A DNA stretch of 64,000 nucleotides from NCBI GenBank assembly GCA_001606155.1, contig LODT01000042.1, positions 79,758 through 143,757 on the forward strand. The letters are read 5' to 3'. Positions 59,258 to 63,732 of the stretch are shown here, piece after piece. The translations under genes were made by a program, and so were the position numbers. The DNA comes from Tieghemostelium lacteum (taxonomy: Eukaryota). The number at the start of each line of letters is the position of its first letter. The stretch's first letter is position 1. The notes under the pieces are model-generated. The model searched no databases. It was not told where the DNA came from and worked only from the letters and a program-made list of their open reading frames with translations.

Positions 59258-60122
59258 ATGAACACAGATAATAATCATAATACACAACCAACAAGTTTTA
59301 ATGATAATGATATACCGAAAGAACATTGGAATAGTGAATCAGTTCAAAAATGGTGTAAGGTAATAGGAATACCTTATTCTGATATTAAACTTATTCGTGA
59401 TAATAATATTAAAGGGAGATGGTTAGTTCTAAAAAAAGACAACAAAAATTCAAGTTTCTGCTAATTCAGCTTTTGAAATATATTTAAAGTTCAACCCCAA
59501 CCCCACCAGTACTGGTATGTCAACTAACACCTATCACTAATTATACTTTTGTATATTAGATTATTATAATATATTTTTATGATAGGATGATATTAATACA
59601 CTTTTATAACAGAGTTAAAGTATAGTCCTGGTAAACCTCTTCAACCAACAACACAACCATAACTGAGGAAAACATTAAAAACTTGATATCTAAGGTACAA
59701 GGTATTGATGATTCTGTTGCTGAGTCTATTGCTGAGCAACTTGTTTCAAATTTTATCAACCAATTTGATCTTATTCTTCAAACCTTAAATGACATTGAAC
59801 TGAGACCAAAGTATTTTCCCAACTGGAAGGATGGTCAAATTTTTCAACTTAGAAATATTTTGGAGTCCCCTGGTATGTAAATAAACACCAATCACTAATA
59901 TAAACACATTTTACACTTTTATACTAACATATTTTGTAACATAAACTTAATTATAGGTTTTACAGAGTTTATAGATATGACCTATAATATAAACCCTACT
60001 TACAAAAGTATCATTGAAGAAGAAGAGAAAATAGTATTAGACTTAAATATGCCTTATGAAGGAAGAGATAATGAAATAGAAGATATTGTAGAAGTTTATA
60101 AGAATAACAATATACCAGAAAT
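59258..60122 (+). pseudogene. Truncated, degenerate copy A of a tandemly duplicated SAM-like gene.
   Basis: Exon structure parallels copy B (same GTATGT donors and conserved intron sequences). Exon 1 has internal deletions and a premature stop (…WLVLKKDNKNSSFC*). Exon 3 diverges from copy B after ...YKNNNIP at about 60120, where an unrelated antisense gene fragment begins. Confidence 0.5.
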
Positions 60123-60134
60123 CTTTTCCTTGTA

Positions 60135-60480
60135 GATAATGAGTTTAGAGGTAGCCATCTCCCAAGCTGTCCATGCTAGTGCAGCTTCTAATTTAATTTT
60201 TTCATCAGTTCCTGTAAGTCTTCTATTGTAGGCTGAAATCATATCATATCTTTCATTTACTGGAATTGGTTTAACATATTATGCAAAATAGTCTGGGAAA
60301 TTCCAATTGGCACCTCCACCACACTGGTAGAAAAATAAAAGTTCTTCTCTTCTGAGTGTGAAAATACCACGAAGACAGAGAGCTTTGACACGAGATGGAT
60401 GAGTTTCAGCATAGGAGAGTGCAAGTGTAGATCCCCAACTACCACCAAAAACTATCCAATTGTTGATACTAAATACACTC
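60135..60480 (-). pseudogene. Fragment of a bacterial-type proline iminopeptidase (S33 alpha/beta-hydrolase) with an in-frame stop.
   Basis: - strand translation ...[107 protein letters not shown] matches the prolyl aminopeptidase core ([13 protein letters not shown]...VLRGIFL...FYQ.G....FPD....Y...IP...R.DLM.AY..RL). It lacks both N- and C-terminal parts and contains TAA within the conserved block. Confidence 0.55.
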
Positions 60481-61069
60481 TAATCTTCTCCATATCAAGA
60501 TGAAATAAAGGAAGATGATAATGAAGAGTTTGAACCAAATGAAGATGACTCCATCTACACTCAGAAAACCAGGTTGTTCTTGGATGCAAAGTTTGATTAC
60601 ACAAAGATAAAAACCCAGATCAATTCCAATTACGAGCACATGTACACTAATACTTGGAATCCCTTACATGATCCATATTTATTGAAGCACCCGGATTCTG
60701 AACCAAAAGATCTTCCTGATTCTATCAAAACTCCTACTGATTTCTTTACTCTTTGATGATCTAGTGAAAGACCTGACCCTAGCTTCTAAAAGGTACATAG
60801 ATTATAAAAACCACATTAAATCCTTCTATTAAACCATCATGAAGGAAATGGAAGTTGCAGAAACAGATATTAAAAAATAGATTGTAGATTTCTTTGTGTA
60901 AGACTTAAGTTATATTAAGGATAGTTATATTAAGTTCTAAAGTGTTATATGTATCTTTAATGTACTATAGACCCTACTGAACCACAATGGTTAATGTTTA
61001 TTATATGTTTATTAGAGACCCTAGATCTCTTAATATTACTATATATGGAAATGTTACTAGTTTTGTCTA

Positions 61070-62478
61070 TTGTTCTATACTAAGACAAGTTACCTAAACA
61101 GACCAATGTCTGACATCTTTGTGCTTGGTCTCTATCGCGTTCCTACTGTATCAGACCATTGGAACAATTCAGATTTTTTTATAAAATCTCTGGAGCCAGT
61201 GTTTCCATTTTCTAAATGGAAGTTTATACATCGTGTTTTACATTGTACCGGATTCTATAACGACCCAGGCTATGAAAATCCAGTGCAAGATACAGACAAC
61301 TCCACATCCATTGAAACTCTTTTAAATCAAGCAAACAAAAATAATGTAAAAATTAATGATTTAACTTGGCTGATTAATCACTGTAATTTAAAGATCAAAA
61401 AGCATTATTCTCATATGTTGGTATTGGCATTGGATGATGATCTTTATAAATGGACCGGTAGAGGAGGAACTAAAAAGTATTTACCTGCAAAAGCAGATGG
61501 CATTGGTAACATTTTATGGAAACTGGCTGACGAGAATAAATATATCTTCCATTTTGAAGTAGAAAATTATGTAAAACGTAATCTAAATCCAAACGAAAAA
61601 TTGAACCAAATAATATTAAAGTAGAAGCTGCAGTTCCAAATGGTCTATTTTGTTTTGTAATAGATGCTGGTATTCTTGGATCAGTTGAAAACGCTGAATA
61701 TCTACATTCACAAGGAAGATTTTTCATTGTTTCTGTCTCATCCACCAGAATTAAATCAACTCTAGATCGTGTTCTTGACAATGCCAGATCTAAAAAGGTT
61801 GTAGAGAGAATATCAGGGGATGTAGGAACTGTTCTTTGTGGTATCTCTCAAGATGATATTGTTAGTATAGCATGGAAGGCAAAGAGAGATAAGATTGTGT
61901 ATTTTTACACCAACATATCTAATCCTTTAGCAGCTACAAACAAACAACAATCCTATTATCCTCGTATTGCCTCTGTATACAACTATACTCACAACTATGT
62001 TGACGTAAGTAAAATGATCGTTAATAGACACAGAAACATACGCAGAGCAAGAATTTATTGGAGATCTATTTTTAATGATATTTTTAACATAATGCTGTTT
62101 AACTCCTTTATTTTATATACTCTCGTAAGTAAAAAAAATCAACGTTCATCACTATCTTACAGGGAGTATAAAAAATCAATTGCCTCAGACATGTCATTGA
62201 AAGTGAATACAACACCTACAACCACTAACACTATAGTCTTTCCTGAATTGATAAATTCAACCAAAAAAAGTGTAAATATACTAATTGCACACTGTTTGGA
62301 TCAACCAAACACTCAAGACCCACCTCCCAATGTGTTTGCCACAAAGAGAATTATCACACCTATTGTGCAGTTGCTGTTCACAACCCTAACATGCAAACGA
62401 AAAGAAAAAACACCAACACCACAACAAATAATAATATTATGGATAATAATGAATCTAATGTATAATTTCTGCCTATAA
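61070..62478 (+). mobile_element. Degenerate piggyBac-like (PGBD/DDE_Tnp_1_7) transposase remnant. It is split over at least three frames and is N-terminally truncated.
   Basis: ORF 61070..61624 contains KWTGRGGTKKYLPAKADGIGNILWKLADENKYIFHFEVE, which resembles the piggyBac F(K)GR..KQYMPNKP.KWGIK.W.LADS.TGYVYNFEVYTG block. A shifted frame at 61624 onward (…GLFCFVIDAGILGSVENAEYLHSQGRFFIVSVSSTRI…VYFYTN) and ORF 61897..62478 (RIYWRSIFNDIFNIMLFNSFILY, compare piggyBac W..R.FF.LLD.A.VN.YILY) continue the same protein order. Frameshifts imply inactivity. Confidence 0.55.
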
Positions 62479-62657
62479 ATATATAAATAAATAAATATTC
62501 TATTCCTTAATCCTTAAATCATAGTACTGTTTTTGCCTTTATTTTGTCCTTTTTTGCCACTTGTGTCCATTTTGGCACGGATTCACACTTTGCTCTCCAG
62601 ACACTTTAAATAACCCTTAAGGGTTATTTTATTTTTTTTTGTGTTCTTAATTAAAGC

Positions 62658-63732
62658 ATGAGCACAGATACACAACCAACAAGTTTTAATGACATTGATA
62701 TACCAAACAAACATTGGAACAATGAATCAGTTCAAAAATGGTGTAAATTCATTGGAATACCTGAAAAGGATATAATAATTATTAGAAATAATGAGGTAGA
62801 TGGATTCTGTTTAATATTTGAACATAAAAATGGAAATTTAGGCAAAGTATTAAAGGATTTAGGTGTATCACTCCCTTCTTCAGCTAGAATTCGTGCAAAA
62901 TTCCCACCTATTCAGCCAACTACAACCACAACTATAAGTACTGGTATGTAAACTAACACCTATCACTAATTACACCTTTGTATATTAGATTATAATATAT
63001 TTTTATGATAGGATGATATTAATACACTTTTATAACAGAGTTAAAGTATAGTCCTGGTAAACCTCTTCAACCAACAACTACAACCATAACTGAGGAAAAC
63101 ATTAAAAACTTGATATCTAAGGTACAAGGTATTGATGATTCTGTTGCTGAGTCTATTACTGAACAACTTTTTTCAAATTTTATCAACCAAATTGATCTTA
63201 TTCTTCAAACCTTAAATGACATTGAACTGAGACCAAAGTATTTTCCCAACTGGAAGGATGGTCAAATTTTTCAACTTAGAAATATTTTGGAGTCCCCTGG
63301 TATGTACATAACACCAATCACTAATAGAAACACCTTTTACGCTTTTATACTAACATATTTTGTAACATAAACGTAATTATAGGTTTTACAGAGTTTATAG
63401 ATATGACCTATAATTTAAACCCTACTTACAAAAGTATCATTGAAGAAGAAGAGGATATAGTATTAGACTTAAATATGCCTTATGAGGGAAGAGATAATGA
63501 AATAGAAGATATTGTAGAAGTTTATAAGAATAACAATATACCTGCTTTTATTAGAAAAGTGAAAGCAATACAAAATTATAGATTACCACTTGTAACTGTA
63601 ATATATTACATTACTATATCGAGAATTACTATATATGTAATCTATTATGCTTACTACAATCTAATAATAATTAGTAATCTTACTTCCATTTATAGAATAT
63701 CTGTAATCTCTAAGAAAACTATAAATACTTAA
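62658..63732 (+). CDS. SAM-domain-like protein, copy B (apparently intact). Three exons: join(62658..62943, 63039..63299, 63383..63732), about 298 aa.
   Basis: Exon 1 (…EHWNNESVQKWCKFIGIPEKDIIIIRNNEVDGFCLIFEHKNGNLGKVLKDLGVSLPSSARIRAKF…) has the sterile-alpha-motif pattern W..L.SIG...Y...F....IDG..LL.LT..DL..LG......RI. Phase-1 GTATGT..AG introns of 95 and 83 nt link the three listed ORFs into one frame. The low-complexity tail of exon 3 may hide a further intron. Confidence 0.5.

Follow-up and report, generated by a model that had tools for sequence, protein, structure and literature searches.

Partial duplication of a SAM-like gene around peptidase and piggyBac relics in Tieghemostelium lacteum

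A 64,000-nt stretch of contig LODT01000042.1 (assembly GCA_001606155.1, positions 79,758 to 143,757 of the forward strand), referred to below as the window, is nuclear DNA of the social amoeba Tieghemostelium (Dictyostelium) lacteum and carries near its end two copies, A and B, of part of a gene with a SAM-like module. The copies are direct collinear repeats (59258–60116 and 62658–63542), each containing both introns with their GTATGT donors, and the order of elements from 5' to 3' is copy A, an antisense relic of a peptidase gene, a relic of a piggyBac transposon and copy B. Within the repeat a tract of 609 bp is a young duplication, and the two first exons, as judged from their sequences, are old paralogues of different subtypes. 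Copy A is dead, and the annotated gene model that covers it, DLAC_10265, is very likely a pseudogene model produced as a rescue artefact of the gene predictor. Copy B is intact as an open reading frame (ORF) only and is a truncated chimera that lacks a nucleoside triphosphatase (NTPase) domain. The arrangement is tentatively attributed to one ectopic template-switching event during repair or replication, an account that is favoured here at a little less than even confidence. The locus is genome debris of an ordinary sort, left by faulty DNA repair, and represents no new kind of genetic system.

Two tiers of identity between copies A and B

The copies were delimited by repeat search and aligned with MAFFT, and their features are listed in Table 1. 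Exon 1 is 81% identical between A and B at the nucleotide level, with 59 nt of indels in addition, and the encoded sequences share 59% amino-acid identity, whereas intron 1 (96.8%), exon 2 (98.5%), intron 2 (94%) and the shared part of exon 3 (97.5%) are close to identical. The young tract (59508–60116 and 62937–63542) is 97.4% identical over its 609 bp, with 16 substitutions and 3 indels. Since the introns are near-identical while exon 1 differs, selection cannot explain the contrast, and the parts of the repeat differ in age or origin. An earlier note on this DNA had described a tandem duplication at about 90% identity. Its finding of collinear duplicates that include the introns and the GTATGT donors was borne out by both the repeat search and the self-alignment, and its identity value holds as an average that conceals the step from 81% in exon 1 to 97.4% in the tract; its duplication of a whole gene was not sustained, the tract alone being young and the first exons being older paralogues.

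Both edges of the tract are abrupt. The 5' edge lies 7 nt ahead of the intron-1 donor, beside linker sequence that could not be aligned; homology just upstream is poor, and the only exact runs of 24–25 nt upstream of the tract lie ~150–230 nt further 5'. At the 3' edge the last 56 bp of the tract are the same in A and B, and the copies then switch to complete non-homology at 60116/63542, after the codons for ...YKNNNIP. Each first exon has a closer relative than the other copy. Exon 1 of copy A is closer to DLAC_07094 (P0137), at 90% amino-acid identity, and is 81–83% identical to P0003; exon 1 of copy B is closer to family member P0002 (94% amino-acid identity) and is 97% identical to P0006 over 35 residues.

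The differences between the copies in exons look neutral. Six of the 8 exonic substitutions are nonsynonymous and 2 are synonymous, the random expectation being 80% nonsynonymous. The density of single-nucleotide polymorphisms (SNPs) is 4.5% in introns versus 1.9% in exons, a difference that is not significant (p=0.09). Three amino-acid differences in exon 2 could be polarised, and at two of the three the derived state is in A and the ancestral residue in B.

Introns 1 and 2 are both in phase 1 and exon 2 is symmetric (261 nt), the layout that exon shuffling would lead one to expect. The 5' ends of introns 1 and 2 have ~30 nt in common, including 3 exonic bases (CTG/GTATGTAMAYWAACACCWATCACTAAT, the slash marking the splice boundary; shared intron start CTG/GTATGTAAAYWAACACCWATCACTAAT). 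In the 64 kb window this motif was found nowhere outside the four introns of A and B. It could reflect paralogy of the two introns, or it could serve as a substrate for recombination in exon shuffling. Introners or other mobile-intron elements were considered and rejected: many near-identical introns were not seen, the motif being present within the window in these four introns only.

Table 1. Features of the rearranged locus, in coordinates of the window
Feature	Position	Strand	Remarks
Copy A exon 1, SAM-like module, DLAC_07094 / DLAC_08539 subtype, frameshifted	59258..59514	+	90% amino-acid identity to P0137 residues 1-59
Young tract, copy 1	59508..60116	+	Exon 1 (last 7 nt), intron 1 59515-59612, exon 2 59613-59872, intron 2 59873-59956, exon 3 fragment 59957-60116
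Prolyl aminopeptidase (S33 alpha/beta-hydrolase), internal relic	60117..60479	-	~121 codons, one TAA stop, GGSWG nucleophile motif
piggyBac-like transposase pseudogene, 5'-truncated, no start codon, no left end	60484..62465	+	Stop 62463-62465
Putative piggyBac 3' terminal region	62466..62620	+	Ends ...AAATAACCC then TTAA 62617-62620; putative terminus, read from sequence
Perfect palindrome AAATAACCC-TTAA-GGGTTATTT, 22 nt	62608..62629	.	Putative transposon end
Copy B exon 1, SAM-like module, P0002 / DLAC_01878 subtype, frame intact	62658..62943	+	94% amino-acid identity to P0002
Young tract, copy 2	62937..63542	+	Exon 1 (last 7 nt), intron 1 62944-63038, exon 2 63039-63299, intron 2 63300-63382, shared exon 3 63383-63542
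B-only exon 3 continuation	63543..63732	+	63 codons, 22% GC, stop 63730-63732, AATAAA at 63741
Shared intron 5' motif	59512-59541, 59870-59899, 62941-62970, 63297-63325		

Copy A and the gene model DLAC_10265

DLAC_10265 (KYQ89041) is the exact product of copy A once the copy is spliced according to the NCBI model. To match the genome, the model needs two additional cryptic GT..AG introns, 59426–59489 (GTTCTA...TTAAAG) and 59631–59701 (GTAAAC...TACAAG), which skip the lesions of copy A and cut out half of the SAM domain. In exon 1, a deletion, sized by reading the sequences at ~17 nt against P0137 and P0003 of the same subtype, changes the frame at ~59440, and the stop codon at 59462–59464 results from this shift; by tblastn the match of exon 1 to P0137 resumes in another frame. 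A single base pair is missing from exon 2 at 59653, and past 60116 the 3' continuation is foreign antisense DNA. The deletions, the premature stop in exon 1 and the breakpoint after ...YKNNNIP had all been described correctly in the earlier note. That note had also named the splicing of copy A into an intact ORF as a finding that would speak against it; DLAC_10265 formally is such an ORF, reached only through the two cryptic introns that are read here as an artefact of prediction.

A divergent ORF of 488 codons lies 287 bp upstream of copy A, which is a normal promoter context. The neighbouring divergent gene, at 57504–58970, is B-box-like. An inverted repeat (59186–59220 and 59256–59290; 35 nt, 83% complementary, 35-nt spacer) was also noted here, and its right arm spans the start codon and first 11 codons of copy A.

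Copy B

Copy B begins 37 bp past the transposon end. Spliced at canonical GT..AG sites (62658–62943, 63039–63299, 63383–63732), it yields an unbroken ORF of 298 codons, with an AATAAA 9 nt downstream of the stop. Its truncation point is the same as that of copy A, a few residues past the ...PYEGRDNEIEDIVEVY... stretch, where relatives lead into a P-loop (read from the sequences). For the tail that follows, of 22% guanine plus cytosine (GC), no homologue was found, no match extending past query residue 238. HMMER hits and exact look-ups gave no annotated or assembled protein for copy B, and when its hypothetical spliced products and other ORFs nearby were looked up exactly, matches came only for the two ORFs present on the read-assembly contig described below.

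The canonical splice sites, the ancestral residues at two of the three exon-2 differences and the AATAAA after the stop speak in favour of copy B. It is nevertheless probably a non-functional chimera, and a functional copy B is regarded as rather doubtful. The pair had previously been described as one functional and one decaying copy, with B apparently intact. Decay of A is clear, and B is intact as a 298-codon ORF; it shares the truncation of A, has no NTPase domain and is unannotated, and its function is in doubt given the truncation, the 22% GC tail and the neutral-looking differences.

Peptidase and piggyBac relics between the copies

The peptidase relic (60117–60479) directly abuts the tract end at 60116 and the transposase relic follows from ~60484, with no spacer at either junction. 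The peptidase relic matches Pfam Abhydrolase_1 (E=2e-9), in agreement with its earlier description as an antisense proline-iminopeptidase fragment, and its homologues are named proline iminopeptidase; the best, at 68% identity, is from a metagenome. The rest of the catalytic domain, ~100 N-terminal and ~100 C-terminal residues, was not found in the window, where a tblastn search with 120 peptidase homologues gave nothing outside 60117–60479. At 37% GC the relic is within the local coding range. A bacterial origin was considered and no sign of it was seen, the best homologue lying on an intron-bearing eukaryotic contig of 53% GC. Read in its own orientation, the relic has ...TTAG/ on its upstream side and /GTATAT on its downstream side, and it could correspond precisely to a single exon. 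The sequence GGTAT at this junction also occurs at the end of SAM-like exon 3 (as ATACC), an overlap that could be junction microhomology.

The piggyBac-like transposase was identified from a frame-corrected conceptual protein, which matched DDE_Tnp_1_7 at E=6.8e-21 (75 bits, cutoff 22.4). As the earlier note had recognised, it is frameshifted; three frameshifts (~60755, ~61622 and ~62260–62310) and two in-frame stops (60830 and 60878) were located, and the C-terminus is cysteine-rich in a shifted frame. The nearest relative is DLAC_09271 (63% identity), and identity to a full-length relative of 703 aa is 47%. A short acidic ORF at 60480–60756 that had been listed as a separate feature aligns to residues 165–241 of the 703-aa P0128 and is the N-terminal part of the transposase. 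The first ~165 transposase residues are missing, and no intact transposase ORF is present. The relic contains a probable spliceosomal intron from 60900 to ~61102 (~200 nt, GTAAGA...AACAG), removal of which restores alignment to relatives between '...IVDFFV' and 'PMSDIFVLGLYRVP'. Lesion density is alike in all pieces of the locus, at ~1 per 100–130 codons, which is compatible with a single age.

One candidate piggyBac end was found (...AAATAACCC/TTAA, 62608–62620), the left end being deleted. No second match to it turned up in the window, metagenomes yielded no exact one, and a distant metagenomic piggyBac relative (L003) showed no recognisable end. On the transposase strand the putative terminus reads ...CCC-TTAA and is followed by an inverted copy of itself; the canonical piggyBac end is ...GGG-TTAA. 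The resulting palindrome lies 142 nt past the transposase stop and 28 nt ahead of the ATG of copy B; among the perfect palindromes of the 64 kb window it is the longest (expected number in shuffled sequence 0.1, or 0.02 with at least 6 G/C).

The SAM-like gene family

When 1.84 billion cluster representatives were searched exhaustively with HMMER, only 12 relatives of the SAM-like family were returned. All those with a source that was looked up are from T. lacteum, except a 52-aa read-assembly ORF that is identical to this genome, and the family is apparently confined to this species. No Pfam match to copy B was obtained at E≤1, nor to the relatives P0135, P0136 and P0004 at E≤0.01. The exon 1 module was modelled as a five-helix bundle (AF2 residues 17–82, pLDDT 73–86). 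Foldseek against PDB returned SAM domains as all of its top 11 hits (PHC3, L3MBTL3, Scm, CNK2, SAMHD1 and STIM). Stand-alone SAM chains were matched at target TM 0.6–0.71 over 67–70 columns, with root-mean-square deviations mostly of 2.6–3.0 Å; E-values were weak (0.1–1) because the domain is small. UniRef labels P0135 and P0136 'SAM domain-containing protein'. On these grounds the term SAM-like is fair at the level of the fold. For the exon 2 module a helical unit was predicted with confidence (pLDDT 77); it had no meaningful match in PDB. An internal SAM duplication linking exons 1 and 2 was rejected, BLASTP between the two modules giving E=1.

Full-length P0131, P0134 and P0137 carry AAA_35 (E=4e-14) or STAND-like P-loop NTPase domains, the members of this type being DLAC_01878, DLAC_02754 and DLAC_07094. 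In other members the SAM-like head is followed by a PD-(D/E)XK-like nuclease-like or a RING body. The family (P0131, P0134, P0137, P0132 and P0003, all on other contigs) includes many short members that are probably truncated. P0134 carries the exon 2 module at its N-terminus, and in P0003 this module precedes the SAM module; in both proteins it ends exactly at the exon boundary. Neither A nor B has a P-loop, and tblastn with full-length family members found no NTPase remnant in the window. The window copies are N-terminal-only fragments of this SAM-NTPase family, which could be an NLR-like conflict family.

Read-assembly contig L001

Logan contig L001 (1–1468, run ERR3252989) is 100% identical to 62885–63542 and then to 60117–60926. 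It includes 52 nt of exon 1 of copy B, is B-type at all 19 discriminating sites and retains both introns. Base for base it repeats the junction of the tract with the peptidase relic and that of the peptidase relic with the piggyBac relic (60479/60484), and its two small ORFs are carried by three Logan contigs. The assembler word size is presumed to be k=31, and the 19 variant sites amount to ~7 independent bubbles at k=31. L001 is plausibly a graph chimera formed across the 56-bp stretch that is identical in A and B and longer than this word size. RNA sequencing of T. lacteum exists as E-MTAB-7824, to which ERR3252989 could not be tied, and the run is not mentioned in the searchable literature. 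If ERR3252989 is RNA, L001 is an unspliced product.

Origin of the arrangement

Any model of the locus must cover the young, abrupt-edged 609-bp repeat, the different and older first exons, the spacer-free junctions and the opposite 5' and 3' contexts of A and B. The explanation given preference here, held tentatively and at slightly below even confidence, is that one ectopic template-switching repair or replication event split a resident gene and duplicated the 609-bp tract around a 2.8-kb patchwork; we infer both the single event and its direction. The resident gene would have comprised a SAM-like exon 1, the helical module of exon 2, exon 3 and an AT-rich 3' end, and would have been divergent from the gene at 57504–58970. 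Synthesis would have proceeded through it as far as 60116, jumped to an inverted piece of a prolyl aminopeptidase gene, switched once more, to a piggyBac element located 5' of a paralogue from the same family, and copied through the leader and exon 1 of that paralogue. It would then have returned to the resident intron 1 via short homology at the exon-1/intron-1 boundary (AGTACTG/GTATGT...), the ~30-nt similarity of the intron 5' ends being possible homology for this return. Copy A would thereby have kept the native promoter and native exon 1 together with the tract, ending in foreign antisense DNA, and copy B would consist of a foreign exon 1, the tract and the native 3' end, with no native promoter and no effector domain.

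Several observations weigh against this explanation. No parent was found for the inserted pieces, the best peptidase match being 68% and the best piggyBac protein 63% identical, and no T. lacteum protein is among the 120 listed of 1360 peptidase matches; had the pieces been copied recently, near-identical sources would be expected, barring their loss or a lack of annotation. The genomic DNA compared was that of the window, within which an inserted and a resident exon 1 of copy B are not separable. L001 joins B-type sequence to the peptidase and piggyBac relics that lie downstream of A, and if this join is genuine, the locus has a third copy and a more complicated history. The open frame of B and its retained ancestral residues could reflect continuing selection, and the SNP densities of introns versus exons lean, though not significantly, towards selection on B (p=0.09).

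In the main alternative, which is judged rather unlikely, A and B are old tandem paralogues, a piggyBac element inserted at the TTAA 37 bp upstream of B, and a 609-bp patch was later copied from B to A, entering by microhomology at the exon-1/intron-1 junction and joining non-homologously to a resident peptidase relic, with deletion of the 3' part of A. This sequence of events fits the two-tier identity, the abrupt edges and the derived substitutions in A; the lack of near-identical peptidase or piggyBac parents agrees better with decay in place than with recent copies, and a TTAA beside the transposon end is what ordinary insertion into the promoter of B would give. It needs several independent events, however (an insertion, two deletions with spacer-free junctions and a patch repair), ordinary strand invasion would have had too little homology immediately 5' of the tract, and the presence of a promoter without a 3' end in A and the reverse in B becomes a mere coincidence. 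A simple whole-gene tandem duplication around a transposon insertion, with B functional and A decaying, would account for collinear direct repeats flanking a transposon relic and for an open spliced ORF in B beside lesions in A. Divergence is not uniform as such a duplication would have it: the repeats are collinear, yet exon 1 is 81% identical against 94–98.5% for the rest, and a difference of this size between exon 1 and introns of 94–97% identity is impossible if all parts were duplicated together. Each exon 1 moreover has a closer relative elsewhere in the genome, and B shares the truncation of A, lacks an NTPase domain, native upstream sequence and annotation, and differs from A by substitutions that look neutral; this history is considered quite improbable.

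L001 bears on two further possibilities. The locus might be a tandem array of more than two copies, with a period of ~3.43 kb, generated by unequal crossing-over and collapsed in the reference, its middle unit being composed of exon 1 of copy B, a B-type tract, the peptidase relic and the piggyBac relic. The junction of a B-type tract with the peptidase relic in L001 is as this predicts, and all 19 sites being B-type is expected if B-type reads are in excess; but the 56 bp of A/B identity before the junction exceed k=31, so that a de Bruijn graph could be crossed there after bubble popping and tip clipping, and a true recombinant would need a crossover within those 56 bp. An array is accordingly given a small chance. 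That the second copy or the patchwork junctions were mis-joined in the draft genome is very improbable. The region is AT-rich and bears repeats, and family members lie on short contigs (P0006 on one of 12 kb), conditions that favour mis-assembly, but the copies differ at 19 sites and have wholly different first exons, unlike a duplicated pile of reads, and both patchwork junctions were reproduced base for base by an independent read assembly.

A role for the transposon itself can be proposed from the palindrome. During piggyBac excision a TTAA hairpin is formed on each transposon end (PMC7351741). Reading through around such a hairpin gives end, TTAA and inverted end in succession, and if host enzymes opened it off-centre, fill-in and end joining would yield the palindrome sequence. 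The whole patchwork might then stem from one aberrant piggyBac event, with the palindrome as a P-nucleotide-like hairpin scar and the same break seeding the template switches and the exon graft. This is thought improbable; if true, the locus would hold a rare natural footprint of a piggyBac excision intermediate and a case in which a transposon set off exon shuffling within a SAM-NTPase family specific to the lineage. The earlier attribution of the rearrangement to transposon insertion and ectopic repair is upheld in that the locus is rearranged and ectopic repair is the best explanation; nothing at the locus shows the transposon to be the cause. The relic itself lacks its 5' part, and even its closest relative shares only 63% identity with it.

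Surrounding sequence

The window is AT-rich eukaryotic DNA (~30% GC) in which long ORFs are tightly packed up to ~59 kb. It is part of a contig of 540,962 bp, and protein look-up identified the ORF at 54887–55735 as exactly KYQ89038. A 15-nt tandem repeat at 57177–57305 encodes (Q)QPYPQ repeats and lies in the C-terminal part of a 297-codon ORF (56544–57437). No other copies of the tail of B, the region upstream of A or the piggyBac 3' region were found within the 64 kb window. Contig look-up returned no record for P0001, P0002, P0003, the exon ORFs of A and B or the neighbouring ORFs.

Comparison with known systems

The transposon relic resembles piggyBac elements in its transposase domain, its cysteine-rich C-terminus and the TTAA beside its putative end. 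It differs in being dead and 5'-truncated with no left end, and in reading ...CCC-TTAA where the canonical end is ...GGG-TTAA. The comparators were T. lacteum DLAC_09271 and DLAC_04420 and Heterostelium PPL_11147. piggyBac-like fragments have also been described in D. giganteum (bioRxiv 10.64898/2026.03.01.708701).

The gene family is similar to SAM-STAND/AAA NTPase fusions and to NLR-like module shuffling in placing a five-helix SAM-like head on NTPase, nuclease-like and RING bodies. Unlike those fusions, it gives no Pfam SAM match even at E≤1 and was found only in T. lacteum, and the window copies are without the NTPase.

Interlocus (ectopic) gene conversion likewise produces a sharp switch from ~80% to ~97% identity in linked paralogues of which one is a pseudogene. 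Classical conversion needs homology on both sides, however, whereas here the 3' end of the tract meets non-homology and the 5' end borders sequence that cannot be aligned.

Replicative template switching of the fork stalling and template switching/microhomology-mediated break-induced replication (FoSTeS/MMBIR) class gives complex duplication-insertion rearrangements, as does aborted synthesis-dependent strand annealing. The likeness lies in a direct duplicated segment around inserted pieces, one of them inverted, and in junctions that are spacer-free or have a few bases of microhomology. The differences are that no source loci were recovered here and templated copying would have to be deduced from the arrangement, that the rearrangement is small, with 0.6 kb duplicated around 2.8 kb of insert, and that one junction coincides with an exon-intron boundary of the gene family.

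The main value of the analysis is a correction: DLAC_10265 is very likely a pseudogene model, and its ORF-intact neighbour B is unannotated and chimeric. The locus is also a compact example of a species-restricted modular family rebuilt by exon-level recombination beside transposon debris. Set against these systems, it is a transposon-associated, repair-generated patchwork that splits or patches a member of a fast-evolving, species-restricted family, and it is ordinary in kind.

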